A DNA stretch of 64,000 nt from a virus: the IMG/VR virus record IMGVR_UViG_3300045988_080781, one strand, 5' to 3'. The notes under the pieces were generated by a model. It was not told where the DNA came from. It was given only the letters and a program-made list of their open reading frames with translations, and did no database searches. Position numbers and translations under genes: made by a program. Below, in pieces: positions 2,767-43,100 of the stretch; the first letter of the stretch is position 1; each line of letters opens with the position of its first letter.

Positions 2767-3006
2767 ATGGAGATAAAACTTATGAAGATTGTAAAAGAAC
2801 TTACAGCTATGTTTAGTGAAGGTAGTGATGCAACTCGTATAGATTGCGAAATTACTACAGATGTTGAAAATAATGTAGTCACTATTAGCATTACTAATAA
2901 AAATGATGTTGAAGGTGAATGCATAACTGTTAATAAATCTGACTTTGACGTTTTTGTTCAAGAGTATATTAGGACTTATAATATTACTGCTTATGCTACT
3001 CTATAA
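2767..3006 (+). CDS. hypothetical protein (about 79 aa)
   Basis: ORF 2734-3006; internal ATG at 2767 (MEIKLMKIV...) is preferred. Confidence 0.4.
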   Translation: MEIKLMKIVKELTAMFSEGSDATRIDCEITTDVENNVVTISITNKNDVEGECITVNKSDFDVFVQEYIRTYNITAYATL

Positions 3007-3229
3007 AGACGTAAAAGAAGGTGTTAAACGTAATGATATTGTTATTTGTGATATTAATAGACTTGCTATTATTGATCAAATTGATGAGGAAAATAAAATA
3101 GTTGAACTTACATTTATTGATAATGGATTTCAATGTTTTGTTAGACTTAAACAAATTCGTTATGTTAATCATAATACTGAGAAAGCTGCTTGTAGTTATC
3201 GTACATTAATTGCTAAAATGAAACATTGA
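2993..3229 (+). CDS. hypothetical protein (about 78 aa)
   Basis: ORF 2945-3229; ATG at 2993 overlaps the upstream stop codon (operon-style coupling). Confidence 0.4.
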   Translation: MLLYKDVKEGVKRNDIVICDINRLAIIDQIDEENKIVELTFIDNGFQCFVRLKQIRYVNHNTEKAACSYRTLIAKMKH

Positions 3230-3230
3230 T

Positions 3231-3452
3231 ATGATAAATACTATTGTATCTTTCCATATTGCTGTTGTTATTGCAGCTATTTCATTTTGTTATTATTCTG
3301 GTAAAATTCTTGGTTTTCTAACAATTAAAAGTAATAGTAAATATAATAAATATGCTTGGATTGCTTTTATAATTGCAAGTATTGTTATTATAGCTTATTG
3401 TACTTATCATTGTTATGATTCTATAGAATATTATAAAGCTACATCTCGATAG
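3231..3452 (+). CDS. small membrane protein (two predicted TM helices)
   Basis: Two long hydrophobic segments (IAVVIAAISFCYY and IAFIIASIVIIAYC). Confidence 0.5.
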   Translation: MINTIVSFHIAVVIAAISFCYYSGKILGFLTIKSNSKYNKYAWIAFIIASIVIIAYCTYHCYDSIEYYKATSR

Positions 3453-3458
3453 AACTGT

Positions 3459-3492
3459 CAGTGTCCAATCCTCTACAGGGGTGAGGACACTG
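3459..3492 (+). other. stem-loop carrying the GC-rich motif in its loop
   Basis: 8-bp stem cagtgtcc/ggacactg; the loop aatcctctacaggggtga contains an exact motif copy; intergenic. Confidence 0.5.
3470..3481 (+). repeat. dispersed GC-rich motif, exact copy (CCTCTACAGGGG)
   Basis: read directly; intergenic, inside a hairpin loop. Confidence 0.8.
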
Positions 3493-3536
3493 AATCTACA
3501 AATAATTTTATTAATCTTTTAAAACATTGTAAAGTA

Positions 3537-3863
3537 ATGGCTAAACATTATGATGAAAATGGTGTTTTACGTTCATTGAAACGTAATCCTGCAATTAAGG
3601 TATTTAACGGTTGTATCCATATTATTGAAGGAACAGCCTTTGTTGGTAATGGAACTTGGGGTAAAATTGATTACCTTTGTAAAGTTCATGGCTATCATGT
3701 ATCTATTAGCAAAAATAAACAAGTTAAAGCTGAAGTAATTGAAGCTAAAGAAAAACAAAACGTTGATAATGCTAAACCTAAAGTAAAAGGTAAAGCTAAA
3801 CGTATGATTAGTTTTGCTAAAGATATTAAAAACATTGTGAAGAAGAAACGTATTAATGCTTAA
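3537..3863 (+). CDS. hypothetical protein with a lysine-rich C-terminus (108 aa)
   Basis: Clean ORF; no recognisable motif. Confidence 0.55.
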   Translation: MAKHYDENGVLRSLKRNPAIKVFNGCIHIIEGTAFVGNGTWGKIDYLCKVHGYHVSISKNKQVKAEVIEAKEKQNVDNAKPKVKGKAKRMISFAKDIKNIVKKKRINA

Positions 3864-6295: not shown

Positions 6296-7579
6296 ATGAT
6301 TCTTTCTAAAGCTTTTGATGTTGAAATTTTACCTAATTTTCTTAGTGTTACATTTGTAGATATGCGTGATTATTTTAATATATTTGCAGATTGTGTCAAT
6401 GAGAAAGGTAAACCTATTCCTCTTACTGAAAAACTCCCCGTAAAGGAAATCAAAGCTCGTCTTGCTGTAGCTAAACATGACGCTTTTTATATTACAGATA
6501 AGGATGATAGTCAGTTCTTTTCTCTTATTAATTATATACAGAATACCGCTGTTAAAATAATTAATGATATTCAGGTTAGAACTGATTTATTTGGATATAA
6601 TAATGCTTCTTATGATAATCTTATGATGGCTGCTATTCTAGCTAATTGTATGAGATTTGATAATGCTAAAGATTTTATTTATAATCTTTATCTTATTAGT
6701 AAGAAGATTATTTCTCTACAAGATAATCCTGATTTAGCTAAGCGTGATTATGTTATTAATTCTCTACGTAAATTTAAGCTTCCTTATACATCTATAGATG
6801 TTATGAAAGTGTTTGCTCTTAATAAAGTTGGCAAAATGACTGATAAGAATGGTAATACTGTTTACATTCCTAAAGGTCTAAAGCAAGTTTCTATCAATCT
6901 TAAATGGTATGAACTTCTTGAATATACAATGCCCCCTATTACTGAGAAAGATAAACATTTTTATGATACTTTTAAAGATGATTTAGGTAATAGCTATAAA
7001 GGAATGACTGTTGAAGAACTTAATAAAGTTGTTAAAGTTTGGGATAGATTTATTCTCGAAGAGTATATTCCAGAAATGATGCATTATAATCTTAATGATG
7101 TTTTCATTGTTGCTGAAATGGCTCGTCTATTTCCTGACGAAATAAAACTTCGTTATAGTCTTAGTTCTTCATATAAAGTAAATCTTTTAAGTAGTTCCAG
7201 AAGTAATATTGCAAATATTCTTTTTGAAAAGTTTTATAGTGAATTTAGTGGACTTCATCCTACTCAATGGAAAGGTCAAAAGACTATTAGGACTACAATG
7301 GCTTTTAATAAAGTTATTTTTCCTATTATTAAGTTTAAGACTAAATACATGCAAGATTATCTTGAACGTATTCGTAATGTAAAAGTTACTCGTACTAATA
7401 AAGATAGTTTTGAAGAAACAATTCAAATAGGTAATTTAAAATATACTATGGCTACTGGTGGATTACATAGTCAAGATCCTCCTAGAGCTTTATATAGCAA
7501 GCATGAGTTTATGACATCCTCTACAGGGGAACAAACACTAACTCCAGATAGTTATACTTATATACATTGGGACATTAAT
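6296..7579 (+). CDS. family-B DNA polymerase, exon 1 (3'-5' exonuclease domain to the start of motif A)
   Basis: Exo I FDVE, Exo II YNNASYDNL, Exo III YNLNDV, with T4/RB69-like spacing; ends ...IHWDIN, the first half of motif A (Dx2SLYPS). The uninterrupted frame stops at 7609. Confidence 0.75.
6436..6447 (-). repeat. dispersed GC-rich motif, variant copy
   Basis: plus strand reads ccccgtaaagga, translated LPVKE inside the polymerase gene. Confidence 0.5.
7518..7529 (+). repeat. dispersed GC-rich motif, exact copy
   Basis: cctctacagggg, translated SSTGE inside the polymerase gene. Confidence 0.8.
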
Positions 7580-8633
7580 GAAAGCGGTGCCCGTCATAAA
7601 TCCCGTTAATTGCTGGAATATCGTGAAGATATTAGTGCTACAACATAGCTTGAAAAAGCAAGTGTGAATGCTTAAAAAACTAATATTATATGACAATCAG
7701 CAGCCAAGATTCTAAATAATGATGTGAATCATAATATGAATAAGGTTCATCGACTATTCCTTTATGGAAGTACACTTATAGTTAATATTTGTGGAAAAGC
7801 GGGAAAAGTTCTTAATAAAGTTAGTTCATTGAGAAAGTAGTTACTATCTTTGTTTCACAATTAATTCAAATTATTAAAGTTATGCCTACATTTAATTTTA
7901 AAAGTAAAGAAATTAAAAGAGCTGAAAAGCTTAATAAACTTCGTGGAGTAATTAGAACTGGTCATAGTGTTCCTTATGGAACTTTTAGTATTTATGGAAA
8001 TGATGCTGCTATTTATGGTATTAAAAGTAAAACAACAGGCAAACAATATATTGGTGCTACTAAGCATATTCAACGTAGATTGATGAAACATTTCAATGAA
8101 CTTAAACATAATAGACATCGCGCTAAAGTTTTTCAAGAAGATTATAATAAATATGGTTTTAATGATTTTGAAATTATTATTTATGAAAATACTAATGAAG
8201 ATTTGCTTATTAAAGAAAAGAATAAACAAGTTGAAATAGGTATTAATAATCTTTATAATGAAAAGATTAGTGGTGTTTATATTACAGAAGAAAGAAGGCA
8301 ACAAATTATTAATCAAGATAGAAGTACTCATAAAAGTAAAGAATATAGAGAAAAAATGAGTAAACTTAAAACTAATCGTATCAGACAATATGATTTAGAC
8401 TTTACTCCAATTAAAGATTGGAAAAGTTGTAAAGAAATTGTTGAAACTCTTGGTTATACTAGAAGTGTTATTCTTTCTTGTTGTAATGGTAATAAAGTTC
8501 GTGCTTATAATTGTTATTGGAAATATATTGATGATAATGGCAATATAGTAAATAATGGTTATATTAAAGCACGTAAAAAAGAACTTTAAGATATAGTCAG
8601 GCTTATATTGAAAGATATAAGGTTATCCGAGCT
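7580..8633 (+). mobile_element. intron-like insertion (probably group I) in the DNA polymerase gene, carrying a GIY-YIG homing endonuclease ORF; boundaries approximate
   Basis: Motif A is split: DIN at 7571-7579, then SFYPSIM at 8634-8654 in frame. Candidate internal guide GTTAAT at 7601-7606 can pair with exon end ATTAAT (U-G at the junction). An in-frame stop follows at 7607-7609. Moderately GC-rich structured flanks lie at 7610-7860 and 8590-8633. Confidence 0.6.
7882..8589 (+). CDS. GIY-YIG family homing endonuclease
   Basis: AAIYGIKSKTTGKQYIGATKHIQRRLMKH...N motif block (GIY-10/11-YIG, R, then H/N); C-terminal basic region resembling a DNA-binding domain; located inside the polymerase interruption. 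Confidence 0.75.
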   Translation: MPTFNFKSKEIKRAEKLNKLRGVIRTGHSVPYGTFSIYGNDAAIYGIKSKTTGKQYIGATKHIQRRLMKHFNELKHNRHRAKVFQEDYNKYGFNDFEIIIYENTNEDLLIKEKNKQVEIGINNLYNEKISGVYITEERRQQIINQDRSTHKSKEYREKMSKLKTNRIRQYDLDFTPIKDWKSCKEIVETLGYTRSVILSCCNGNKVRAYNCYWKYIDDNGNIVNNGYIKARKKEL

Positions 8634-9641
8634 AGTTTCTATCCTAGTATCATGGCTGTTTATCATGTTGCACCAAAACATCTTATTGAAGATATATTTG
8701 CTAAACTTGTTAAATATTTTCGTGATACTCGAGTTAAAGCTAAACATAGTAAAGAAGATTTTATAGATGGTATTCCACCTAAACTTCTTGCTGAAGCATT
8801 TAAGATTGTTATTAATAGTATATATGGTAAATTTGGTGATGAAAATTCTCCTATATTTGATCGTATGGCTACATTGCGTGTTACAATTAATGGACAATTA
8901 ATGATTTTAATGCTTTGTGAAGAGCTTGAACTTAATGGAATAGAAGTTATAAGTGCTAATACTGATGGTATTGTTATTAAACTTTATGAAAGTAAGAGAG
9001 AAACATTTAATGATATTGCTAATAGATGGAAAGAATATACAGGACTTGATGCTGATAGTGAAGAATATAAACTTTATGTTGGGAGGGATATAAATAATTA
9101 TCTTGTACAAGAACTTAATGGTAAAATTGATTATAAAGGTGCTTTTAATCCAAAGATGTATATTAAAGATTTAAGTAAAGGTTATGATATGCCAATTGTT
9201 GCTAAAGCTGTAGAAAATTATTTTCTTTATGATATTCCTGTTACTCGTACTTTATATGATTCTACAGATATTCTTGATTTTTGTCGTAGTCAAAATGTTG
9301 GAAAACAATTTCATGTTGAAGAAACATTTGTTGAAAATGGTAAGATTATTAGACGTGAATCACAAAGATATGTTAGATATTATGTAAGTAATACTGGAAC
9401 TGTTATTGAGAAAGTAAATAATTCTTCAGATAAAATTAGAAGTAAATTATGCTCTGGATATTATGGTACTATTCTTAATACACTTGATGATAAACCTATT
9501 TCTGAACGTAATATTAATTATAGATTTTATTATGCTGAGGCAATGAAGATTATTAATCCTATTAAGCTTAATATTGGTAATAAGAAGAAAAGTACTCTTA
9601 AAAAAATGACTGGAATGTATAATACATTGTTCGATGAATAA
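8634..9641 (+). CDS. family-B DNA polymerase, exon 2 (motif A remainder, motif B, motif C, thumb)
   Basis: SFYPSIM is in frame directly upstream of ATG 8652; KIVINSIYGKFG (motif B, Kx3NSxYG); ISANTDGIVI (motif C-like); KGAF/KMY region. Confidence 0.7.
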   Translation, partial: SFYPSIMAVYHVAPKHLIEDIFAKLVKYFRDTRVKAKHSKEDFIDGIPPKLLAEAFKIVINSIYGKFGDENSPIFDRMATLRVTINGQLMILMLCEELELNGIEVISANTDGIVIKLYESKRETFNDIANRWKEYTGLDADSEEYKLYVGRDINNYLVQELNGKIDYKGAFNPKMYIKDLSKGYDMPIVAKAVENYFLYDIPVTRTLYDSTDILDFCRSQNVGKQFHVEETFVENGKIIRRESQRYVRYYVSNTGTVIEKVNNSSDKIRSKLCSGYYGTILNTLDDKPISERNINYRFYYAEAMKIINPIKLNIGNKKKSTLKKMTGMYNTLFDE

Positions 9642-26440: not shown

Positions 26441-29400
26441 TTATTCAGCAATAAATTCAATTATAGGTTTAGCATTAACAAGACCATTAAAGTTTTCACC
26501 TAATTTATAATAACGATTATTTTTATCAAGACCCATAAATCTATCAATACTACGATAAATAGGAACTTGACGTTCAATATATCTCCATATCTTATTTTCT
26601 CCAGCATAAGGACCATTCTTATAAATAGGATCAAAATCTTTACCTAAAGTAACCATATCAAGAATATAATTTCCAGCAGCAAGCATTTCATTAATAGAAG
26701 TATTAACTGCCATAGGATTACGAGTAAATTTACGAATTTCACCAAATAGACCAATATTATACATATTAGTTTCAGAACTCCAACGATCAAATGTATAAAG
26801 ACCCCAATTAGCTAATAAATTATCATCATCGTCTTCAAGTATAGCACCTGCAATAATATAACCAATAAAAGCATAAGCGGTCATCATTAATTGTGATGCT
26901 ACACGTCTAACATTAGCTCTATCAGTTTCATTCATAATACCGTAATTAAATTTTAAATTCATAGCTGTACTAAATAAACCTGTAACAATAGAAGTAGCGT
27001 AAGCTATAATAACATCTGTTCCATTAAGTTCTCCTTTATCTCTACGTTCAGCTATTTCATTAAATTTACGTTTATATTCTTTACTTGCTAAATGAGCAAA
27101 ACTAACATACATTCCTCGACCATAAGTACCTAAAGTTTCATTATAATAAGTTCTATTTCTAAAATGTTTTAGAATACCATTCCAAATATGTTTATGGAAC
27201 TGCATTAAAAGACTTCCAAAAAATGTAGTAGATTCAATAGTGGCAGCACCTAATTTATTATATACACCATGTATTCTTGTATTTACAAGTTTAGCTTTTT
27301 CAGCAAATTCAGCAATATCTTTTAAAGTAATATCAGAATTATCTTTTAATTTAGCATATCCATCTTTAATTTCAAATTGATCAAGTACATTAGGAGCAGC
27401 ATCATATAATTTCTTAAATTCTGCAATCTTTTTATCTCTAACTTCTTTATATCGTTTTCCAATTATTTTTCTATTTTCAGGATCAAGAGAATCTATAAAT
27501 TGTTCAGCAATATCAACTTTACGAGTTTGATAATCAAACATTAACTTAGTATCATTTTTGATATTTCTAAGCATACGTTCAAAATAAGTATTAAGAACTG
27601 GATTATCTTTAACTATCTCTCTAATAGCAGTACGTTCAGCAGATAATTTATAACTATTAAAATCAACAATTTTATATTTACCACCAACATTTATAATTTT
27701 ATTAGAATACATAAGAGCTAATAAAGCAGTATTTTGCATATAATGTTCACCAGCAGTTTGTGGACTATAAGCAAAACTTTTAAGATCATTAATAAGTTTT
27801 GTTGGATTTAATGCTTTACCGTTATAACTAGTTTCACGAATATTATCATAATCAATTATATTCATAAATTTAAATATAGCATCAATTAAATTATTTGATT
27901 TATCACTATAAGCATTCATAAGAAATGCAGGAGAATTAAGTATATATTTAGCTTTAGCTCTTTCCCAATCTTTATGATTAAAATATTCAGCAGCAAAATA
28001 TTCAGCAGCAATACCAGCAGAACCAGTCAATACGTTACTTACACCACCAAGTATATTAAACATCATATATTTAGCAGAAGTAAGATTTTGCATAACATTT
28101 ATTACAGTATCAAATTTAGTACGAGGTTTATATTGATGTAAAAACATTCTTTTAAATAATACTTCAAGATGTTTAGTAGTATTAACAGCGCGTTCTCGTT
28201 TATATTGTGTAGCATTAGTAGTACTTAATCTTCTATCAACTTTAAGATCTCCTGTAATAGTAGTTTGATAAGCAGGTTTTAATTGTCTATAAAATTCAAG
28301 TAATAAATAAGCATCATTAATCATTCTATTTTTAGCAGTAGTTACATGAGCATTAACAATATAATCATGAAACATTCCTTTATAATCATCATCTCTAACT
28401 TTAGCAATAAGTTCATTATTACGTTTTATAATTTCTTCAGAAGCTTTACGAAATTCTTTAATTCTATCATAATATTGTTCATCAGTTTCTCCAACTAGTC
28501 TAGAAGGAGCTTCAGGTAATCTTTCAAGTCCTGAAGTATAAATATCTTGCATAGATAAATTACGAACATCTGAACCATATACATAAGAAAAATCATCACT
28601 TATACCTCTATTATTATCAAGATTTGCAGTAGCACCAACAAAATTAAGAACACCTTTAGTAAAATTAGCAGGATTATTTTCTATTTTCTTTCTAAATGGA
28701 AATAAAAGTTTATTAACATGAGACATACCACTTTCATTTGTGGCAAATTGTTTCATTTTATCAATAATATAATTTCTAATTTCTTTTTCATATTCAGTAG
28801 CATCATCTTTTCTAAAATACTTTTTATCTCCAGTTTCAAAATTATAATTAGCACCATAAGTTTTATATTTATCATTTTTAGTGCCCGGCTTAGGTTCAGT
28901 ATAAGCATTTAAATAATTAGGTTTATGTTCAGCTTTATACTCACTATCTTCAGTAGCTTCAATATTAGTCCATATTTGAATTGGTTCATATTTATGACTC
29001 ATAGGATTGTATACATGATTTTCTTCAAACCATTCATCATATCTACCTTCAGCTTTAGCTTTATTAGCTGCCATATCATAATATTCAGTAGTACTACTTT
29101 TAACATTATTATTAATCCAAATTTTAGCAGCCATTTTATCTTTATCAAGGAATTTATCTTTTACATGTTCTTTAGGTACAGCATAAGAATAAATATAATC
29201 ATTTTTACTATCTTCAGCAAAACTAATACCATTAAATACTCTATGCATATTAGATAATTTATTAAATGCTTCATACCATTCTTTATCAGCATTTGTATTA
29301 TCTGGATCATCATATGCTTCTTTAGCTAATTGTCTATCTCTTTCAATAGCATTATTATCATATACATAATCAACGTTTTCATTAATAAAATCTCTAGCAG

Positions 29401-32400
29401 CTTGTGCTTCTGGAGACATATTTTTACCTTTACCTCGTCTTTGTTTATATAAACTAGTATATAAACTTACAAGTTCTTTAAGTTGATTAGTATTAAGTCT
29501 AGAAAGATATACTTTTCCTGAATCATCTAAAGCGTGAATAAGAATATTATTAATATCATTTATTAATTTATTAACAACAGGATCACTTTGAGCATCAACA
29601 TGCATAGATTTATAAAACTCTTCTGTATAAATTTCATTATTATCAGGCTTATTACGAATAAGTCTTACTTCAGAAGAAAATTTACTAAATCTAGATTCAT
29701 GTTCTTTTTTAATTTCAGCTACTTGTTTATTTGTAAATTTAGTACCATCGATAACTCCAAAAGCATCTCTATAATTAACTTTAGGATTAGCATCAATTAT
29801 ACGTTTCATAGCTGTTTTCTTAACACTATCTGAATTAGATAATGTAGCAAAAGCATCAGCCATTTTACTATAAAATTCATTATCATATCTTCTAATAGTA
29901 TTTTCAGCTAACCATTCAACAGCTTCTCTATATTTTTCATTCTTAATACGTTCCTCTAAAGGGAGTTTTTCATTATCAGTTCTATTAGGATAAGTAACAT
30001 CTTCAATTATTTTAAGCATTTTATCCCTAGTTTCAAAAAACTTTTCTTTGGCTGTTCTAACAAAATATTTTTCCTGAATATTATTTAATGTTTCAATAGC
30101 TTTATTAAGAACTTCATTTTCAAGTAAAGTTCTACGTTGATTCATAAGAGCAAATAATTCATTATATTGCTCATCAGATTTATCTTTAATATTAACAAGT
30201 TGTTTAATATTATCATTAAGTCTTAAATAATCTCCATATAATTTAATATTATCATCATTACTAAATATTTCATTTAAAGCATTATTTCTTTCATCATAAT
30301 AAGATTGAACAAATTCTTGTTCTATATTTTTAGCATACCAAATATCTCTATTACGTTTTGCTTTAAGATGTATAGGATGATAATTACCAAAAGCATTTTT
30401 AGTATCTGTATATTCAGTATCAATAGCTGATTTATCATTATTAAAAGATTCATTATAATTTGATAATATAACACCAGCAAGTTTATCAACAATATTATTC
30501 CAATTAACAGGTTTTCCAGCTTGAGCAGCTTTCTTTTCTATTTCTTCAATAAAAGAATTAAATTTTCTTGCATCTTCAATACCAACTTTATCAGCATAAT
30601 TTATATTAGTATGAATCATTTTTAAAACTACTTGTGTAACAGCATCATTAATTTCCATACTATCACCAAATAAATATGCCATTTTAGTTTCATCAGTAAC
30701 AATAGCATCATATAATGTCATAAATCCATCTTTAATATCAGGATTATTACTAAATTTAGAAATATAATTATTATAATATCCTCTTACAGCATCTTTAACA
30801 TTAGAATTATTTTTAATTTTAGTAATAGCACTAATCATATCTTCTATAGCTTTAGATACATCAGAAGGAAGATTATCAGTAGAAAGATTAAATAATTCTC
30901 TAAAATTATCACCAAATGTAAGACATTCAAGAATTAAACTTAAAAATGTTTGTCTATATTCTTCATTATCTTCTTTAGATATTTCATTTATAACATCAAT
31001 ATGATTTATTGGAATAGGAATTCCATCTTTATCACGACTAAATTCATTTATCTTTTTAAGAAGTTCTTCAGCTTTATCAATATAATATTTTGAATTAAGT
31101 TTGATAATTAAATTTCTATTACTTTCTATACTATTATTATTAGTAAAATCAAGACCTAAACTTCCATATGCTCGTATAGTACGAGAAGCATCTTCATCAT
31201 TAAGTCTATTTCTTCTACGAAGTAAATCATTATAAATAGCTTTGTTTATACGTCCTAATTCAGTTTGTTCTTCAATTTCAACATCAAAATTAATAGAACT
31301 TTCAAGTGTTACATCATTATCATCATTTTCTTTAATTCTTGTAACTCTATAAATATCATCACTAAATGTAATATCATTTCTTTTAAGTTTTTCAGCAACA
31401 TCGCCAACAGATTCATCTTTATATAATTTTTTAAACTTATTAGTATTAGATTGAATACGTTTAATACCTAATCTAACTGTATTTCCATCATCAAGATTAA
31501 TAACTTGTTCAGAAACTGCATAAGGATCTTTGAAAGCATTTTTTAAAATATCATTTATAGCCCAAACATTAATAGCATTAACAGAAGTATTTGAAAATTT
31601 ATTTTTAAGAGTACGTAAAAATGTTCTTACACCTTCAGATCCGGGTTCATTACTTATAGCAACATTTTCTAGAAAATCATCATTTTTAGGAACATTTTTA
31701 TTAACTTTTATTTCTCTACTACGATTACTTCTTATATCTTTAAGTTCATCTTTAAATTCTTGTTTAATTTCATTATTAATAGAATAATTATTAGCAACAA
31801 TTTTTGAAATAAGTCTTAGATAAGAATAATTATCAATATATTTATGATTAAATAAATTAGTACTAACACCATATTCATTAGAATCTAATGGATTAAGAGG
31901 AAATAAAAATATATTACCACTATTTTCATAATTAACTACTTTAAATAATATAGTTTCTTTATTTTTATCTGTTAAATTAATATAACTAACAAGAACATCA
32001 TTATCTTTTGTTTCACGTAAAACGCCAATAGATTTGGCTTTAGCTCTATCATTAGTATCATTAATATTAAAATAATAAAGTTTAGTTTCTGAATCAAAAT
32101 AATCTATTTCACGTTTTTTACCATCATATTTAATATTATGAGATAAGACTTGTCTAATATCAGGATTGGCTCTAATAAAATCTTCATATATATTAAATTC
32201 TTCAAGGAATTTATAATCCATAGATCTAATACCTTCTCGAATATTTTCAATAATATTTAATCCGCCATTAGCAATAGATTCATATAATGCATTATTTTTA
32301 ATAGTTTTGCTAACTTTATTACGACCATAATTATATCCTTCAACAACAAAAGCATATTTAATAAGATCAATCATTGTATCTTTAAGAACACGACTATTTG

Positions 32401-35400
32401 TATTAAAAGTTTCTTCAAATAATTCATGAATAACATCAATATTTTGATTTTGATCTTCAAATGTAATATATTGTCCGCTAATACCACGTTTTCTAACATC
32501 ACCTTTATGATAAAGATTAGTTTTTAAATAATTAAAAATATTAAGTTTATCACTAGTAATATGTTGTTTAACTATAAATATTTTTTGAGCAGGACTAAGT
32601 TTATGGAAAACTTGATATTCTTCTTCAGTTAAATCATTAATATTATTATATTTAAAATCAACATTATCATCATATTTATATCCATAAATTCTACTTTTAC
32701 TATCATTATTTTCAGTAATACTTATTGTACCATCTTTATTAACAATAACATCTTTATGTAATGTAGGAGCAGATAAAAAGTATAGAAAATTAAGAAAATA
32801 CTTTTTAAATCTATTATATGTTTTTTCATCAAGAGGAGCATTAAGATAACCTTCAAGATATTTAACAGCATGAATAAATTCTGGACTCTCGCTAATAAAT
32901 CTTTGACTAGTAATTAAATATCCGCTAGATGTACCATAAGTAAAGAAAGCATTTAATATTGGATATACACTTTCATGTTCTCTATTATATTTAAGAAAAT
33001 CTTTAATAGCATTTTGAATATCATCAATAGATTTTGTAGTTTGTATATCATCTTCAGTTGTAAATGCAATATTAGTTATACCCGGATATACAGCTTCAAC
33101 TAATGGAACTTTATTACCTTTAACTGGTGCTACAAGTCTATTATATTTACCACTATTAATTAAATCATAAATATCATAAAAAACTTTACGCGCATTAAAC
33201 ATATTATCTTTAGCACCATATTTATCAGCAGCAAATATTTTAGTATGATTTTCAATAAGTTTACCAAGATTATTAAGTTTATTAAATATAATAACTTGTT
33301 TAATATGTTCAAGAAGAATGTTGTTATCTGTTCCATCCTCTACAGGGTGACTATACAAATCAAGCATATTACCCATATCAAGTTTAACGGATTCATTTTC
33401 ATATATATTAAAATCAAATCCAGTAAGCTTTTTAATATTATTATAAATAATATCTATAGGTGTATAGTCATTAACTTCTGTAAAGTTATTACCAAGTTTC
33501 TTTCCATCAATAGTTATATGTTTAGCAATATTTCTTATAGCAAGATTAATAATATTTACATGACCAAGTTTATTAATAGCAGAACGAGTTTTAAAATAAG
33601 CATTAGTAAGTTCTACAATAGCTGGCTGTCTAAGCCAAAGTTGAGCATTATGGTGATCTACTCCTAAATCAAGAAGAGTTCTATAAGCACTAAATGTATA
33701 AGGATTTTCATTAAATACTGCACCTTCTTTAACAGCATCAAAACTATGTGTAGATGTTTGTGCAGCATAAGATGTTATAAGTTCATCGACAATATTTCTA
33801 TTATTTTTACTATGACCAAGACCTTTATGAATAACATATCCATTTTCATCTACATCATAATTTTTATTTAAAACTGAATAATCAATACCAAATTTACTAT
33901 TAACAGATTTATCAATATATTTTATTAATATAGGTTCATCTAATTCTGTTCTTGAAACATTATTAATACTATTACCTGTATCACGATTAACACTTAATGC
34001 TTTTAATACAGCACCTCCCATAGCATTACGTCTAAAGAATATTTGATCCAAAGGGTTATATGGACTACGAGGAACTTTTGTAAAACCTTGTAATTCATCA
34101 ATATCTTCTTTAGCTCTACTTAAATCTTCAAAATGACTACGAAGTAATTGTTCTTCAAGATTACTAGGATCTTTAAGAATATTAATCATAGATTGAAGAA
34201 TCATATTATCTCTAGCTTCTCGTGTATTTTGTTGACTAATAGTTTGTTTACTAAATTCTTCAAATGTCATTAAACCAGCATCTTTAGCTCTATTTCTAAT
34301 AGCTTTTTTAAATTTATTTGCACCTTCCATTTGAAATATTGATTTACCATCAATTTCAATTTTTGCAGATTCAGTATTAAGTTCAGTAAATATATCTTTA
34401 ATTTTACTATTAATATCAGCATATTCTTTAAATAATTGCATAGCTTTAGGACTACCTTTAATATGCTTCATATAATTAATCACTGTAGCTAATCTATCAG
34501 TATAATTAACATTTTTATTAGATAAATATTTATAAATAGTATTTTTAATAAGTTTTGAAATACCAACATATTTATTATATTCAGGAGAATTAGTATCAGT
34601 TATTCCACAATATTTAGCAAAATTATCTTCATCCGCAATAAGATTATATAATTCATTTTCTTTAGTAAACAAATCAGAAGCCATTTCTTTATAAACTAAA
34701 TAAAGTTTTCTAGCTTCTTCAGATCTAGTAGCACGAATCTTTGCAATAATAGCTTCTTTTTCTTCAGAAGTTAAAGAAGTATCATTAGCTTTTCTTATAA
34801 GTCTATTAATATTCTGATTTACATATCTATTATATCGTTGCCATGTAGAATCTTCATCAGTACCAGTAATATAAGGAACTTTATGTATATTTCCGTATTT
34901 ATCTTTATATACATGGAAAGTAATACCATAAATAGAATCGACATCAAAGTCAGAACCAGTTTGAGTAACCCAAGCATCAGGAACAGCTATAGTACTACCA
35001 TAAGCTTCAGGTAATATACCAACAACTCTAAGAACTCCAATAGATTGTTTAGCTTCAGTTGGCATACGATAACCAATCATTTCTGCAAAATCACTTGTAA
35101 TAATAGAATCTTCAGTTATTCCATATAATTCTGCAGTCCATCTTGGAATCATAATTTCAATAATAGGTTCTCCATTAGGATGATAACGAAGACCTTCAAC
35201 AAGTTGTCTAAATTTAATCTTTTGAGCTTCAGTCATATTCTCAGTATTATTAATACCAAGAATTTCAGACTTTTTAATTTTATTACCATCACGAAGACCT
35301 GAATGAGTTATCTGAGTAGCATGAAAACCTGGAAGTTTTTGTCTAGTTATATGATTAGTAATAACACTTTGAGCAATATTTTCTATTTTATTACCTACAA

Positions 35401-38400
35401 TATTCATAATTTCTGGCATAATAGTATCAAAACTGCCTATACCATCAGCACTATTTTGGACTTTTGCTGTAAAATAATCCATAATATTTCCATCAAGTCC
35501 AAGTCTTTGCATTTCTTTAAGAGCAAGTCTATTAAATTCAGCAAAATCAATTTCTCCACCATTTTTACTTTTAACATTATAATCTTCATCAAATACAATA
35601 TTTAAATCATCACAAAGATTATTAAAATCTTCTCTAATATTATTAATAAAATTTTCAATAAAATTATTTTTATCAGTAGCTAAATGAGATTGAAGATTAT
35701 CAATAATTTTCTTCATAATCTGAACACCAGCTTTATTTTTACTATCAGTAATATGTTGAGGAACTTCTTGTTGTTTATATAAATTAGCATAATTAAAATT
35801 ACCTACAACTCCGGGAACTAATAATTCTTCAGCAAGTTTAGGATCATCAAGATCTCTAAGTTCACCTTCATTATTCCATAATGTTATAACATTATTATTA
35901 GCAGCTTTAGATGTTTCTAATGTATTAAGTTGATCAATATCATTATCAACCATCCATTGATGAACTTCAGCAAGTTGTGTACCTTCAACAAGTTTAGGAA
36001 TAATAATAAATTCAGCATTTTTAATTTGACGAGGTTGTTCAATATTAAATGTTGTATCATAAGTCATATCATAATAAAAGTTCTTAGCAACTTGCATAAA
36101 ACTATTAAGAGTTTTTGGATCAATAGCATTAATAGGTATAGTAGGATCTAATAAATCATGAATAAGTTTTTCATATTTAGGATATTCTCCAAGTTGTTTA
36201 ATACGTCTAATAGCTTCATAAATAGTAATATAAGATTGAGCATCATCAGTTTTTGTAGTTTCAGCTTTTTCACCTTCTTCAGCATAACCAAAAGCTTTAG
36301 CTAATTTATTAGCTTTTTGCATAGCTTTAGCATTAGTTTCTATATCATTATCATCTTTAGATTTAAACGAATTATATAAAGCATCACGAATTTCTTTTAC
36401 GTTTTTAATAGGACGTACAATATTATGTATAGTTACAGCTTTAAATGCACTTCTAACAGTTAAAGGTTTAAATCCTTTAGAAGTTTGTATTTGTAAATCA
36501 CTTCCTTTATATTGAATAGGTTCAACATCTACAATATTAGCATCATAAGGATTACCTATTTCATCATTAGATATAAATTTGCCTTCGCTATATCTTATAC
36601 CTCCAGCTAAATATTCTTTTGCACGTTTAGTTCCAGTTTGAGTATCTTTATAAAATTTAGAATTACCTACAAATAAGTCATCACAATTATTAAGAAATAA
36701 GAAATAATTCATATAATAATTAAATACATCAGATCTATTAATAGTATTATCTACTTCAGATATTTGATCATAAAATTCACTAACACAATTAGCATCATAT
36801 TCTTTAATCCAATTTTCAATACATTCATCAATTATAGATTCTTGTTCAGAAGTAAGTTTATAAGTAATATTATTATTTTCATCAACAGTATAACTAAAAG
36901 GAACATCACGAAGTTTCCCCGTAGAGGAAATCTTGAGTGCAGCTTCTAACCTATCACTGATACTAAATATACTTCCATCACTACGAAGAATATCAAACAA
37001 TTTAGTAAATTTAAAAGCATTACCAATTAGTTTTCCATCTTTAATATATTCTCCTTTTTTAAGTACCATATCTAATGGTAATTGATTAACATCAACAAGA
37101 AGTTTATCAGAATTATGTCCAAACATTCCATATCTATATTTAAGAGCTACTTGAATTTCGCCATAAATAAGATTTTTAAGCTGTTTAAATATATCACTTT
37201 TTCTATTAACAATAGCATTATTCATTCTATCATTAATATAAGATTTAGAAGCAATATTAGAAAATGCAGCTTTAACACTATCTGGAACTTCATAATTAGT
37301 ATTAAATCCACTAGTATATAAACCAGCAAATTCAAGATTAGATACAGTTATTTCAGTATTAACATCATTAATAGCACCTCTTTCAGTAAGTTCTCCTTTT
37401 AATAAAGCATATATAGGTTTATTAGCATTATCTCTATACATAATAGGAATATAAATAATACTTCCTTTTGTATTATTAGTAGCTGGAACAAATCTCATAG
37501 CAATACGATTTGCTGTAGAAGTAGAAATAGCATTTTTAACTTTAGTATTTATCTTACCTTCTTTAACTAAATTAATAATAGTTTCAGCAAATTGTTTAAC
37601 ATCAGTAGTTCGTGTAGCAGCAATACTAATATTTTCTAATTTAGATCCTAATGTATTATAAGTAGATTCATCAATATAAGAAGTAAATTGACTTAATAAA
37701 CCTTCAACATAATTATTCATACTAGCTTCTTCAACTCCATATAAAGATTTAGCATCATATACAGGCATATCTAACATATACATTCTAGGAGAATCAGAAG
37801 GAACAGGTAAAAGAAATGGTCTAGTTGGAATATTAGCATTTATAGCAGATCCTTCATTATATTTTCTATAATTATCAATACCGTGCATAAAACCATAAAA
37901 TCCATAATACATAAAGTCTGTATCGGACATAGTATTATATTTAGCATTAGCACCAGTAGCTAAATTGTTTATACCAGCCATTCTAAATACACTAATGACA
38001 TCTCCAATATTAGTAGGAGTTATAGCACCATTATTATATTTAAATAAACCACGATTAAATCCGTGATCTACAAGAATATTACTAAATTTATATTGATCTG
38101 ATCTAAATTTAGATTTACCATAATTAAGTCTAGTACTAGGATTATTAATAGCATTAACTGTATTATATAAATAATTATTATAAGTAACTGCACTTACATT
38201 TTTTCCATCAACACTTCTTGTATTTAATTCAATAGGAATATTTGCATATTTACTTAATGTTTGACTAATATTATCAACAGCACGAAGCATATCATTAAAC
38301 ATAGTATATTCTTCTTGTTCTTCTCTTTCATATACAGGAGGAGTATTATCAGGAACATTACCAAGTCTTTCAAAATAATTTCTAAGTTTTTCTCTATATA

Positions 38401-40145: not shown

Positions 40146-43100
40146 TCAGCAAACCATCCAAACTTCACCACGGTCAAAAGATGAGGCAAATTCGGCTTGT
40201 TGTTCGGGATTTATTGCCTGCTGGAGATTGGAAAGGTTACCTATTCGATTAATACCATCATGATTAACATTAGCATCAACATTATAAAAATTAATATTTG
40301 TATCAAGTGTTATATCATCATTACTATCAAAATCAGAACTTTCACTATAATCTTCAAATGTAAAATCATCATCAATAAATTCTGTAGTTGTTGGTTCAGG
40401 ATTAGGTTCTTCTTTAGTTTCAATATTATCAGTTTTAGGTTCTGAATTAGTAATATCAGTAGGTTTAGGATTTGAATCACTAACAAGAGTTTCAGGTTTA
40501 GTATTCGCTAGTTCTTCCCTTACAGGGGTGCTAACACTAATCTCCGTATTAGGAATAGTTTTATCAGTAATTTCAGAATTATTTGAACCAACTATTAATT
40601 GATTACTTAAAACTCTAATTTGAGCATTTAATATACTATTATCTTTAACATCATATTTCTTACCGAAGAATATCTTACCAATAAGTTCAATAAACTTTTG
40701 CCATATAGATTTAGGTTTATTATTACTATCAAATTCAAGATCAGAAGTTAAATTATTAGCAAGATTAATAAGTTCTGGTCTAGTAAGCATTTCAACAATA
40801 AATTCTTCACATGCTCTATTTGTTTCAATATTATCATTATCTTTATTTTCTCTAAATGCTGTATGGTTATCATTAAGATAAGTATTTAATATAATATTAA
40901 TACGTCGTTTAAGTTCAATAATATCAATATTATTATTTGTAGCATAATTTTCTAATTCAGTAGTATTATTATTAATTTTATCATAAAGTAATTTAGCAAT
41001 AACTAAAGTATCATTTTGAATAACATTTATATCTACAGCTGTATTATTAGTTCTAATTAATTGATGAACACGTTCGTGAATAATCATTCTGACAAGTTCT
41101 CGTTCACCAATATTATTAGGATTATTAACTAATGTTTCAAAAGCTCTTCTATAAATAATAAATTTATTATTTTTAATATCATAAGAAGCATCAGCATTAA
41201 TGCCTTCATTATCTTCTTTAGCTAATACTAATTCAAACTCAGTATCTTGTCTAATAAGTTTATTATTACCAAATTTAAGATTAACAATATTTGAAAAATG
41301 AGGAGCAAATTGTTCAATAATAGAACTAGCTTTAACAGTTAATCTATTTTGTTTTTTATATTCTTCTTCAGCTCTATTAAATAAACTATTTACTTTTGCA
41401 GTAACAACTGTAGTTGCATTATCACCAGCTTTTGGAGTAAACATAACTTGAACATTTCTATTCGCAGCCTGATTTCCCGTAGAAGTTGTCGGCATAAAGT
41501 TAGTATTTATTCCATTAATATTTGCTTTTCCAAGATAAATTTTTCCAAGTTTATTTTTTACTATAAAGTCAAGATAATTTTTTCCAGAAAATGTTTTACC
41601 ATTAATAGTAACTTTAAATTCTCCATTAGCATCATGAGAAACATAATTAGTTTTAATATCAGTTCCTTCAAGATAATAATTTCTACTAATATTAAATTTA
41701 CCATTAGATAATATTTTACTTATTTTTTCATCAAGAGTTTTTCTAGGAAATTTACTAGATGATGTAACAGTATCATTTTCAGGTTTATCTCCTAATTCAA
41801 AGAATGAAATACCAGTATTATCATTACCATTTTTATCTCTTCTATAAATAGTAATATCAGCTAATTTATTGCCAACATTTTTATAATTACTTATAATAAT
41901 TCTATCACCACTTTTACTAATAACAAAACCTTGAACAAGAGAATCATATTTAATAATATCATGTAATTTATTACTTAAATCATCAAAACTTATATTACCA
42001 TTTTGATAACTAACTAAAAGATTAACAACTTCTTCTTTAATATTATAAGCTAATCCATTTTTATTACTAAAATTTAAAGTATCACCAAATATAGGTCTAT
42101 ATGTCGGTTGATTACTTCCATTAGATATAGCAACCATAACACCACTGCCTTCACTTTGAAATCCTTCAAGATTATATTCAGTTCCATTAGCAAATTTAAT
42201 TTTACCTTTTTGATAATTACAACATAATTCGGTATTACCAATTTCTTTACTTCCAGAAACAGTATTACTATAATTAACAACAGCTTGATCTATATATGAA
42301 GGAGTATCAGATTCAATAGCTTCTCCAAAACTACTTGAAGCAACTTGAACTTCTACATATGCATCATTATCATTAGTACTTTCTCTATTAATTCTATCAA
42401 TAACTTCATCAACAAAAGCAAGATTAGAATATTGTCTAGCTAAAAAATTCTTATAACTATTATATCTAACAAAATTATTATCAGAAATATTATTATAATT
42501 AATAATAGGAGCAATAATATTAATAAGAGATTCTACATTTACAGGATTATTACCAAATATTTTTTTAACTATATCATTATTCATAACAATAGCAATATCT
42601 TTATCAATTTCTTCTTTAGTAAATCTATTAGTATTTATATAATTAAGATTAATACTAGTATCAGGATTTAATCTACGTAGTGTTACAAGATCTAATATAG
42701 CATTATAAAATTCAATTTGTTCAGGACTTTTTGGATTATTAATAATTCCATTTTCTGTAATAGTATAACCAAATAATTCATTAAATAATTCATCAAATAT
42801 AGATTCATAAGTACCATTCTTTTTATATATAGCATAAGGAAAAGATTTACTATTAAATATGTATCCATCTCCATCAGAAGTTCTAGTTCCTTTACTATTA
42901 AATCCTATTTTAACATATCTACCTTTATCATCTCTTTCATATATTTCAATACCATTAATACCTTTAGATCTACTATTTCCACTGTAACCTATTCTTAAAT
43001 ATAAAGGTTGATTAGGTTTAAGACTTTTATTACTATATATTTTAACACGTTTATCATTAGTAGGAGTTGTAATAAAACTATCAGCATTAAGATTACTTTC

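Follow-up and report, generated by a model that had tools for sequence, protein, structure and literature searches.

A probable mobile group I intron of IA-like type interrupting the gene for family-B DNA polymerase in a crAss-like phage

The stretch of DNA analysed here (the window, 64,000 nt) carries a family-B DNA polymerase (PolB) gene whose motif A is broken by an insert of exactly 1054 nt (7576-8629), with the insertion point lying within 5 nt 3' of the codon for the motif A catalytic Asp. A sequence-only reading of this DNA had already described a family-B polymerase split in motif A by about 1.05 kb with a GIY-YIG ORF, and comparison with the sister genome L005 now makes that length exact. 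The features of the locus are the following.

6296-7575, plus strand: PolB exon 1, residues 1-427 (ending with the first two bases of Ile427), with Exo I-III and Asp426
7569-7592, plus strand: P1 hairpin, in which exon GGG(A)CAU (7569-7575) pairs with the internal guide sequence GUGCCC (7587-7592), A7572 being bulged
7576-8629, plus strand: predicted group I intron, 1054 nt, starting UAAUG and ending AUCCG, placed by partial matches to Rfam RF00028, the indel relative to L005 and same-site homologues
7583-7585, plus strand: intron strand AGC of P10, pairing with GCU 8631-8633 of exon 2
7601-7804, plus strand: 5' core block, from the Rfam match, RNAalifold and compensatory pair counts, comprising P3 (7601-7607/7798-7804), P4 (7610-7616/7697-7703), P5-P5a (7621-7632/7683-7693), P5b/c (7637-7679), P6-P6a (7709-7741), the P7 5' strand (7752-7756), P7.1 (7757-7769) and P7.2 (7773-7793)
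7607-7609, plus strand: in-frame UAA that ends the read-through of exon 1 into the intron, at the border of P3 and J3/4
7805-7813, plus strand: P8 5' strand, AAAGUUCUU, pairing with 8579-8587
7845-7852, plus strand: TAnnTTTG-like box TATCTTTG, 30 nt upstream of the start codon of the homing endonuclease gene (HEG)
7882-8589, plus strand: GIY-YIG HEG of 235 aa within the P8 loop; the P8 3' strand is formed by its final codons
8579-8624, plus strand: 3' core block, with an Rfam match at 8586-8618 and a covarying P9, comprising the P8 3' strand (8579-8587), J8/7 (AAGAU), the P7 3' strand (8594-8598, UAGUC) and the P9 hairpin (8599-8609/8614-8624)
8630-9641, plus strand: PolB exon 2, from the third base of Ile427 to the stop, with ASFYPS of motif A and motifs B and C

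The upstream ORF (6296-7609) contains Exo I (FDVE, residue 7), Exo II (NASYD, 103) and Exo III (YNLND, 264) and ends ...YIHWDIN-ESGARHKSR*, with 9 extra codons before the TAA; the three exonuclease motifs, and the stop 9 codons past IHWDIN, were thus all located where they had been reported. The downstream ORF (8652-9641) encodes motif B (KIVINSIYG) and motif C (NTDG), and SFYPSIM is seen in frame directly before its ATG, again as reported; this ATG is the conserved internal Met of YPSIM and not a start codon. With the motif A catalytic Asp426 encoded by GAC 7571-7573, the motif residues of the joined exons follow one another in order (7, 103, 264, 426, 485 and 537), and the one joined polypeptide holds Exo I-III together with the family B motifs A (Dx2SLYPS), B (Kx3NSxYG) and C (DTD). 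The joined protein is colinear with intron-less homologues, exon 1 being so with the polymerases of L005 (96% aa identity), Carjivirus and Wotdevirus; motifs B and C find matches in archaeal PolB structures, and the Pfam PF00136 match is weak (18.8 bits). Each of the three ORFs (exon 1, HEG and exon 2) is in a frame of its own, and in L002, L008, L014 and L032 an in-frame UAA likewise follows the 5' splice site by at most 6-7 codons, ahead of P3.

The intron-less sister L005 is 97.5% identical to the window at the nucleotide level on both flanks, with the breakpoint at 7576|8631 of the window. It reads CAT TGG GAT ATT GCT AGT TTC, that is HWDIASFYPS, which is the protein product of the U7575/G8629 join, and the comparison with an intron-less polymerase gene that had been proposed as a check defines both the insertion site and the 1054-nt indel. 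The polymerase exons of the window are 96.6% identical to those of L005 with no disabling change, and within 80 nt of the site the sole exon differences are at -3 and +1. The C at -3 is also found in L006, L008 and L014 (a shared WD codon context), and it pairs with the guide sequence. No second copy turned up when the window was searched with the family core in nhmmer, and no tRNAs were found. The split is not an assembly artefact: five blocks of the assembly collection contain an identical HEG protein, the contigs being 50-200 kb long in four of these, and the analysis covered four contigs that carry it. The one locus retrieved, L047 (run SRR2992900), matches the window at 100% identity across 6.7 kb.

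The 5' splice site falls after U7575 and the intron ends at omega-G8629, giving predicted ligated exons GAC AU|A GCU AGU, or D-I-A-S-F-Y-P-S. The sequence-only reading had found the junction odd, perhaps non-canonical, and had held that no in-frame join gives both U at -1 and a terminal G; it had, however, placed the junction a few bases off, and U7575|...G8629|A8630 is in frame, keeps Dx2S(F)YPS and has both the U(-1) in a U.G wobble and the terminal G. Enumeration of the joins on the window sequence returns U7575/G8629 as the only one that is in frame with Dx2S, with U at -1 and a terminal G, and the predicted junction is canonical rather than unusual. The join DIN|SFYPS that had been suggested would need an intron ending in U or C, and its Asn codon is intronic and missing from L005; its resemblance to DINSMYPS of Carjivirus is coincidental. 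All five relatives (six loci, the cores of L032 and L033 being identical) have the homologous U.G wobble, an in-frame DxxS(F/Y)YPS and a terminal G, aligned to G8629, that precedes exon 2. The exon base at +1 is A in the window, U or G in the relatives and T in the intron-less sister. Furthermore, three relatives carry A, not U, after the splice-site U, so that the homologous 5' splice site is U7575 and the one-base ambiguity that exists in the window itself is removed.

Evidence for the ribozyme fold comes from a covariance-model search and from comparison of homologues. The search for a group I core, which had also been recommended, matched both core halves in the window with Rfam RF00028, one at 7601-7804 (34.6 bits, E = 8.6e-7; P3 through P7 and P3') and one at 8586-8618 (23 bits; J8/7, P7' and P9), both half-matches coming from a focused 1.3 kb Rfam search. 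Neither reaches the Rfam gathering cut-off of 50 bits; the ORF-bearing P8 loop that separates them is 765 nt long and splits the RF00028 match, which is why the window falls short of the gathering score as a single match. Indeed L006, an ORF-less same-site homologue, matches the full model (1-253) at 77 bits (E = 4.8e-20) against the same cut-off. The whole-window Rfam search did not detect the intron at the gathering threshold or at E <= 0.05, and the whole loci of L006 and L014 returned nothing at the gathering threshold; given the 77 bits of the focused L006 search, these negative searches are filter effects and not absence of the intron.

Among six homologous introns at the PolB site 94.9% of cells are paired, and compensatory changes on both sides occur in 33/85 pairs, against 3-5 in slid controls and with 0/500 shuffles reaching that count. 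Such changes are found in P1, P3 (6/7 pairs), P5, P6, P7.1, P7.2, P8 (5/7 counted pairs) and P9; P7 (5 bp) is invariant and therefore carries no covariation information. The helices P3 to P9, including the P3/P7 pseudoknot, were all located and are intact in the window. The window intron is without P2. P7.1 and P7.2 are present between P7 and P3', each with compensatory changes in 2/4 pairs, and indicate an IA-like subgroup.

P1 is the minimum free energy (MFE) fold of the 5' segment. Its wobble pair is U7575.G7587, and this U.G column is invariant in 6/6 sequences whilst the neighbouring P1 pairs covary: exon and guide change together from ACAU/GUGU to ACGU/GCGU, the pair at exon position -2 being A-U in the three relatives with exon ACAU and G-C in L002 and L032. 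MAFFT shifts P1 of the window by one column at the bulged A, so that the window's pairing is underestimated by the P1 pair counts; the MFE fold supplied the register used here. A P1 drawn for L006 by Rfam was set aside, as its splice site would not fall at a U.G pair and covariation does not support it. The guide sequence had earlier been sought in GTTAAT at 7601-7606; this hexamer lies at 7605-7610 and in the Rfam alignment is the 3' end of P3 plus J3/4. P10 is weaker in the window (3 bp, -3.3 kcal/mol) than in the relatives (6-9 bp, -6.3 to -10.4, all duplex energies), and P1 is stronger in most of them.

The nuclease at 7882-8589 had been recognised as GIY-YIG from its letters, and it matches Pfam PF01541 above the cut-off (33.6 bits, E = 5e-8, cut-off 22.6), PHROG 314 homing endonuclease (E = 4.6e-15) and the I-TevI catalytic domain 1mk0 (E = 1.9e-7); its score against NCBIfam TIGR01453, group I intron endonuclease, is marginally below the cut-off (55.6 against 56.05 bits). 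The 1mk0/1ln0 alignment spans GIY, YIG, Arg and His, and the same-site HEG homologues share both the Glu of 'KE-K' and the Asn of 'NNLYN', which completes the catalytic set of conserved Tyr, Tyr, Arg, His, Glu and Asn in an intact ORF. The likening of the locus to T4 td/I-TevI holds for the nuclease domain, and td is likewise a phage IA-type group I intron with a GIY-YIG nuclease, in another host gene; it does not hold for the position of the ORF, which here is looped out of P8 and in td out of P6a. The PDB match covers HEG residues 42-130 only, and the C-terminal half has no detectable similarity to the DNA-binding region of I-TevI. The box TATCTTTG upstream of the HEG is a candidate Bacteroidota-type -7 promoter element, and a box (G)ATATTATCTT(T/A)(G/A) is conserved in L002, L008 and L032. 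At the insertion site the putative intron-less target of the L005 type is GGGATATTGCTAGTTTC.

It is very probable, from these comparisons, that 7576-8629 is a mobile group I intron of IA-like type in the PolB gene of a crAss-like gut phage. The earlier reading had likewise preferred a self-splicing intron to two translated halves, and the Rfam core, the covariation and the L005 allele all favour that preference. Comparative evidence from the aligned homologues and the empty allele documents how the RNA is structured, where exactly the insertion lies, which junction rules apply and that the nuclease ORF is intact, and from it we infer that splicing and homing occur. The pre-mRNA would fold into a P1-P10 ribozyme, exogenous guanosine would attack after U7575 where this is wobble-paired to G7587 of the guide GUGCCC, and G8629 would then occupy the G-binding site in P7, with ligation of the exons to GAC AUA GCU AGU. 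The spliced mRNA would yield a continuous polymerase of 763 aa with motif A restored as D-I-A-S-F-Y-P-S. In a co-infection, the I-TevI-like nuclease presumably cleaves polymerase alleles that have no intron, for example that of L005, and repair from the intron-carrying copy would spread the intron (homing).

Split family-B polymerases do exist, as gp43A/gp43B of some T4-related Aeromonas phages and in archaea, and the gene could be truly split here, with a free-standing HEG cassette between an N-terminal exonuclease part and a C-terminal palm/thumb part that are translated separately and assemble. The ORF at 8652-9641 starts with ATG, that at 6296-7609 has its own stop codon, and GenBank records of relatives list two 'DNA polymerase' CDSs. 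We nevertheless hold this to be very unlikely: the break separates the catalytic Asp from SFYPS, a fragment initiated at the ATG at 8652, which codes for the conserved Met inside YPSIM, would be without SFYPS, and a free-standing cassette needs neither a complete covarying group I core nor a P1 and P10 that pair with both exon edges. An intein, or an element for translational bypass or frameshifting, shares nothing with the insert beyond the interruption of a conserved motif and is refuted by the three reading frames of exon 1, HEG and exon 2 with stop codons between them; Pfam, moreover, shows GIY-YIG only and there are no Hint or intein motifs.

The remaining alternatives accept the group I intron and differ on how it is excised. 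That it no longer splices efficiently, as a decaying copy, as part of a defective genome or through dependence on a protein cofactor, might be read from the bulged A in P1, the P10 of just 3 bp and the A at exon +1, which is unlike every relative. P10, however, is dispensable in many group I introns, and with all core helices intact in the window, an intact HEG ORF with its catalytic motifs, exons as close to the sister as given above and an allele recorded in several independent assemblies, the chance of this appears slim. Excision might also be shifted by one base, after U7576 and ending at A8630 (a non-canonical end), to join GAC AUU GCU: BLAST puts the indel at 7577-8630, the +1 mismatch to L005 vanishes and the sister's DNA is restored more exactly, and U7576 can wobble with G7586. 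Against this, a terminal G is the defining requirement of the second splicing step, all five homologues have a G aligned to G8629 and three of them have A after the splice-site U, all of which makes the shifted excision highly improbable; the encoded protein is the same either way.

Returning to the mobile intron, same-site introns are found in L002 (MT838267) and in the IMG/VR contigs L006, L008, L014, L032 and L033; MT838267 is without any annotation, the IMG/VR contigs are bare DNA, and none has the intron annotated. They share the insertion point (after GAC AU or GAC GU of motif A) and about 80% nucleotide identity in the core, their P1 and P10 pair with their own exons, and the polymerases of their hosts are 51-65% identical in aligned segments. 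Four, L002, L008 and L032 among them, have a 47-50% identical GIY-YIG ORF in the P8 loop, whereas the introns of L006 (279 nt) and L014 (353 nt), unlike that of the window, have no ORF. A candidate same-site case in cr271_1 was rejected as a different intron 2 nt upstream. The family also occupies a second PolB site, where the 5' exon again ends in GACAU, and a divergence patch surrounds the empty second site in the window and in the sister genome.

The intron core is also similar at the DNA level to introns in other phages. The P5-P4'-P6 core of the Twort nrdE intron with I-TwoI (AF485080) is 76.7% identical over 86 nt (E = 6e-8); this too is a phage intron in an essential DNA-metabolism gene, and one that self-splices experimentally, but its nuclease is HNH and not GIY-YIG, and the gene and the host phylum are different. 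The DNA polymerase group I introns of Bacillus phages SPO1 and SP82 carry a homing endonuclease as well, in a family A polymerase and with the HNH enzyme I-HmuI. That homing introns sit in active-site codons of DNA-metabolism genes of phages is textbook knowledge, and no concept is changed by the window intron.

In crAss-like phages, group I introns have been reported from the genes for PolB, MCP and primase (Yutin et al. 2021, PMC7886860; review PMC10136315). Phage group I introns with homing endonucleases, including those in crAss-like PolB, are already described. The published introns are from the same phage order and the same host gene and were recognised through the intron-encoded endonuclease, detection being via signature protein domains, mainly endonucleases; RNA structure and splice junction are not mentioned in the portions of the text available from these articles (PMC7886860; PMC10136315). 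According to the same portions the introns belong to the Delta and Zeta groups, and alpha to gamma genomes are said to be without mobile-element insertions (PMC7886860; PMC10136315). The nearest named relatives of the window by PolB identity are, however, alpha-group Intestiviridae, namely cr3_1 (56.9%) and Carjivirus (56.2%). The window thus adds a case at nucleotide resolution, with insertion site, guide sequence and covariation-supported structure, and shows that an alpha-type lineage is not exempt from intron insertions.

For annotation, two "DNA polymerase" fragments and an "endonuclease" should become a single PolB of 763 aa, join(6296..7575, 8630..9641), with an intron and a HEG listed beside it, and crAss-like phage phylogenies and gene counts that take PolB fragments separately are slightly wrong. 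Finally, as genomes that are 97.5% identical differ by the intron and have nearby exon changes only at -3 and +1, alpha-group (Intestiviridae-like) crAss phages may host an actively homing group I intron family, a suggestion that we make tentatively and at somewhat less than even weight. The shared GACAU ending of the 5' exons at the two sites would fit ectopic spread by reverse splicing directed by the guide sequence, and the divergence patch at the empty second site could be a co-conversion scar. If this is true, such introns could serve as marks of co-infection and recombination in gut phage populations.

The 1054-nt insert that splits PolB, the family-B DNA polymerase gene, inside motif A is, as judged from its sequence, a canonical group I intron with a GIY-YIG homing endonuclease, well supported but ordinary, and both its splicing and its homing are predicted. 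Such an intron had been proposed by the sequence-only reading, and Rfam core matches, covariation and an intron-less allele all bear this out. The gene layout it described also stands on re-reading: ORF 6296-7609 carries Exo I, II and III and ends ...YIHWDIN, followed by nine more codons and a TAA, ORF 7882-8589 encodes a GIY-YIG protein, and SFYPSI lies in frame upstream of ORF 8652-9641, which carries motifs B and C. An intein is excluded because these three ORFs occupy three different frames.

Features of the interrupted PolB gene and its relatives (window positions unless another genome is named)
6296-7575 (+), PolB exon 1
7576-8629, the insert
7601-7804, first match to RF00028 (34.6 bits, E = 8.6e-7; model 50-157: P3, P4, P5, P6, 5' strand of P7, P3')
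7805-7813 with 8579-8587, P8, 9 bp, closing a 765-nt loop that holds the nuclease ORF
7845-7852, TAnnTTTG-like box TATCTTTG, inside the P8 loop, 30 nt upstream of the nuclease ATG
7882-8589, nuclease ORF, 235 aa
8586-8618, second match to RF00028 (23 bits; model 219-251: J8/7, 3' strand of P7, P9)
8630-9641 (+), PolB exon 2
9059-9194, divergence patch in PolB exon 2, residues about 570-615
L005 (intron-less sister genome), target at the insertion site, TTGGGATATTGCTAGTTTCTATCC
L004 (cr3_1) about 2815-3815, and L038-L045 (IMG/VR relatives), second-site intron

The position of the junction is given by the intron-less sister genome L005, whose polymerase is 96% identical to that of the window in protein and 96.6% in DNA, and whose flanks are 97.5% identical either side of a clean 1054-nt gap. 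This allele reads CAT TGG GAT ATT GCT AGT TTC TAT CCT (H-W-D-I-A-S-F-Y-P), therefore the mature motif A would be D-I-A-S-F-Y-P-S and not, as previously suggested, D-I-N-S-F-Y-P-S; the comparison defines the insertion site and contradicts the DIN/S junction, as the AAT (Asn) that had been taken for an exon codon is absent from L005 and belongs to the intron. When the U-ending exon positions 7575, 7576 and 7579 were combined with the G-ending intron positions 8621, 8622, 8629, 8631 and 8635, the only join both in frame and keeping Asp-x-x-Ser was that of U7575 with G8629, which reads GAC AU/A GCU AGU (D-I-A-S, the slash marking the junction) and gives the same protein as L005. The predicted ligated exons are ...UUGGGACAU joined to AGCUAGUUUC....

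Five distinct relatives with introns at the same site confirm this choice of predicted join. Their junctions read GAC AU/U UCA UCG, GAC AU/U GCA UCA, GAC AU/U GCG UCU, GAC GU/U UCG UCC and GAC GU/G UCG UCU, the last intron base is G in every one, and their guides (GUGCCC(C), GUGUCCC, GUGUC, GCGUCC and GCGUCG) each pair with their own exon end, with an invariant U.G wobble at the splice site and a -2 pair that switches from A-U to G-C along with the exon. The two consecutive U in the window would make the site ambiguous, but three relatives settle it by having A next to the splice-site U. With the intron-less allele and the homologous introns to hand the puzzle of a non-canonical junction vanishes; the guide proposed earlier, GTTAAT, in truth lies at 7605-7610 and is the end of P3 and J3/4 in the Rfam alignment. 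P1 of the window has a bulged A7572, where L008 (guide GUGUCCC) pairs perfectly, and P10, in which the first bases of exon 2 pair with intron bases adjoining the guide on its 5' side, has 3 bp in the window compared with 6-9 bp in the relatives.

A focused covariance-model search matched RF00028 to the insert twice, the two halves being split by the P8 loop and both falling below the 50-bit gathering score. The homologous intron of L006, another crAss-like contig, sits at this site too, lacks an ORF, is 279 nt long and matches the full model with 77 bits (E = 4.8e-20). Rfam searches of long stretches (the whole window and the L006 and L014 loci) missed the group I matches found by the focused search, including the one of 77 bits, well above gathering; whole-window Rfam negatives should therefore not be trusted for ORF-bearing or AT-rich introns. 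Six introns were aligned after the P8 loop had been trimmed; in this alignment RNAalifold found P1, P3, P4, P5/P5a-c, P6/P6a, P7.1, P7.2, P8 and P9 independently, and P7 was added as a pseudoknot before pairs were counted. Standard pairs make up 94.9% of cells, against 84.3% in shuffles and 35-46% with slid partners, and both partners have changed in 33 of the 85 pairs, where shuffling gives 13 and sliding 3-5; none of the observed values was reached in the shuffles (0/500). The intron lacks P2 and has P7.1 and P7.2, hairpins that suggest subgroup IA, the type usually found in phages. In the window, read-through from exon 1 is ended by an in-frame UAA at the edge of P3, and in four relatives by one within 6-7 codons, before P3; stops of this kind are familiar from phage introns, where they shield folding from ribosomes.

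Residues 42-130 of the nuclease align to the catalytic domain of I-TevI (1mk0, 1ln0; E about 1e-7) with agreement at GIY, YIG, Arg and His. The nuclease is also hit by PHROG 314 "homing endonuclease" (4.6e-15), and TIGR01453 falls just under its cut-off (55.6 bits against 56.05). ORFs in the same-site introns are 47-50% identical to it and conserve the Glu and Asn. The last codons of the nuclease ORF double as the 3' strand of P8. The other intron copies that have the ORF (L002, L008, L032) share the box TATCTTTG, which may be a Bacteroidota-type -7 promoter element giving the nuclease its own transcription.

Searching IMG/VR with exon 2 gave 42 loci, which were sorted by tblastn with the joined protein. 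Most have an uninterrupted PolB; five (L006, L008, L014, L032, L033), together with GenBank MT838267 (L002), are broken at the residue where the window is, and eight (L038-L045), together with GenBank cr3_1, about 155 residues downstream. Several observations hint that the intron is mobile. It is present in the window and absent from L005 despite 97.5% identity of the genomes, and -3 and +1 are the sole exon positions at which the two differ within 80 nt of the site. The C of the window at -3 pairs with the guide and is shared by L006, L008 and L014 (the common WD codon context), L005 having T there; at +1 L005 again has T and the window A. An identical nuclease protein occurs in five assembly-collection blocks, four of which contain 50-200 kb contigs, and many unrelated phages have related cores, one of these being in the I-TwoI-bearing nrdE intron of Twort. 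In other crAss-like phages, cores sharing 80-85% identity with the window intron lie in or next to helicase genes, at about 1500-2950 in L003 (Wotdevirus MH552500) and at 70949-71103 in Rudgehvirus jaberico (NC_091965). Downstream of the Wotdevirus core come a GIY-YIG ORF and a short CDS labelled 'restriction endonuclease', which may be the second exon of the helicase.

Of 78 nucleotide differences between the PolB exons of the window and L005, 37 cluster in about 135 nt around R-D-I/N-N-Y, the site of the second group I intron and GIY-YIG ORF in cr3_1 and the eight IMG/VR relatives. That intron is absent from both the window and L005, and the patch could be a scar of co-conversion or recombination. 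The second-site intron would splice after ...GAGACAU with a guide GUGUCU (L004 about 2770-2830, L038, L041), so the 5'-exon pentamer GACAU is common to both PolB sites, a likeness that would fit ectopic spread through reverse splicing directed by the guide. The nucleases of the two sites are only 29% identical. A different, ORF-less group I-like insert is seen in Hacihdavirus cr271_1 (L050, NC_055887; 1553-1917 in L050) directly after the GAU of the motif A Asp, its join yielding D-Y-T-S-Y-Y-P-S. With this insertion point 2 nt upstream of the one in the window, motif A has at least two that are independent.

The region is that of a crAss-like phage (order Crassvirales), and its gene order, SF1 helicase, 177-aa ORF, PolB, 475-aa ORF, matches that of Carjivirus communis, the 177-aa ORF sitting where we take Carjivirus to have its annotated uracil-DNA glycosylase and the 475-aa ORF where it presumably has a SNF2-like ATPase, a likeness of position. 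Named crAss-like phages are only 65-72% similar to it in nucleotide sequence, and no phage-collection record exceeds 57% identity to the joined polymerase, the best being the Intestiviridae members cr3_1 and Carjivirus. The window also holds giant minus-strand ORFs of 4537 aa (26441-40054) and 2139 aa (40146-46565), and no tRNA genes were found in its 64 kb.

Group I introns that carry homing endonucleases in phage genes for DNA metabolism are classical. In GenBank these interruptions are unannotated, as in MT838267, or appear as two "DNA polymerase" CDSs, as in cr3_1 and cr271_1 at their own nearby sites. For crAss-like phages, the passages on introns in Yutin et al. 2021 (PMC7886860) describe them from the Delta and Zeta groups, where they lie in PolB, MCP and primase and were identified through endonuclease domains, and state that alpha-gamma genomes lack such insertions, statements repeated in the corresponding part of a 2023 review (PMC10136315). 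The window intron differs from those cases in belonging to an alpha-like lineage and in being described at nucleotide resolution; otherwise it is the same kind of element.
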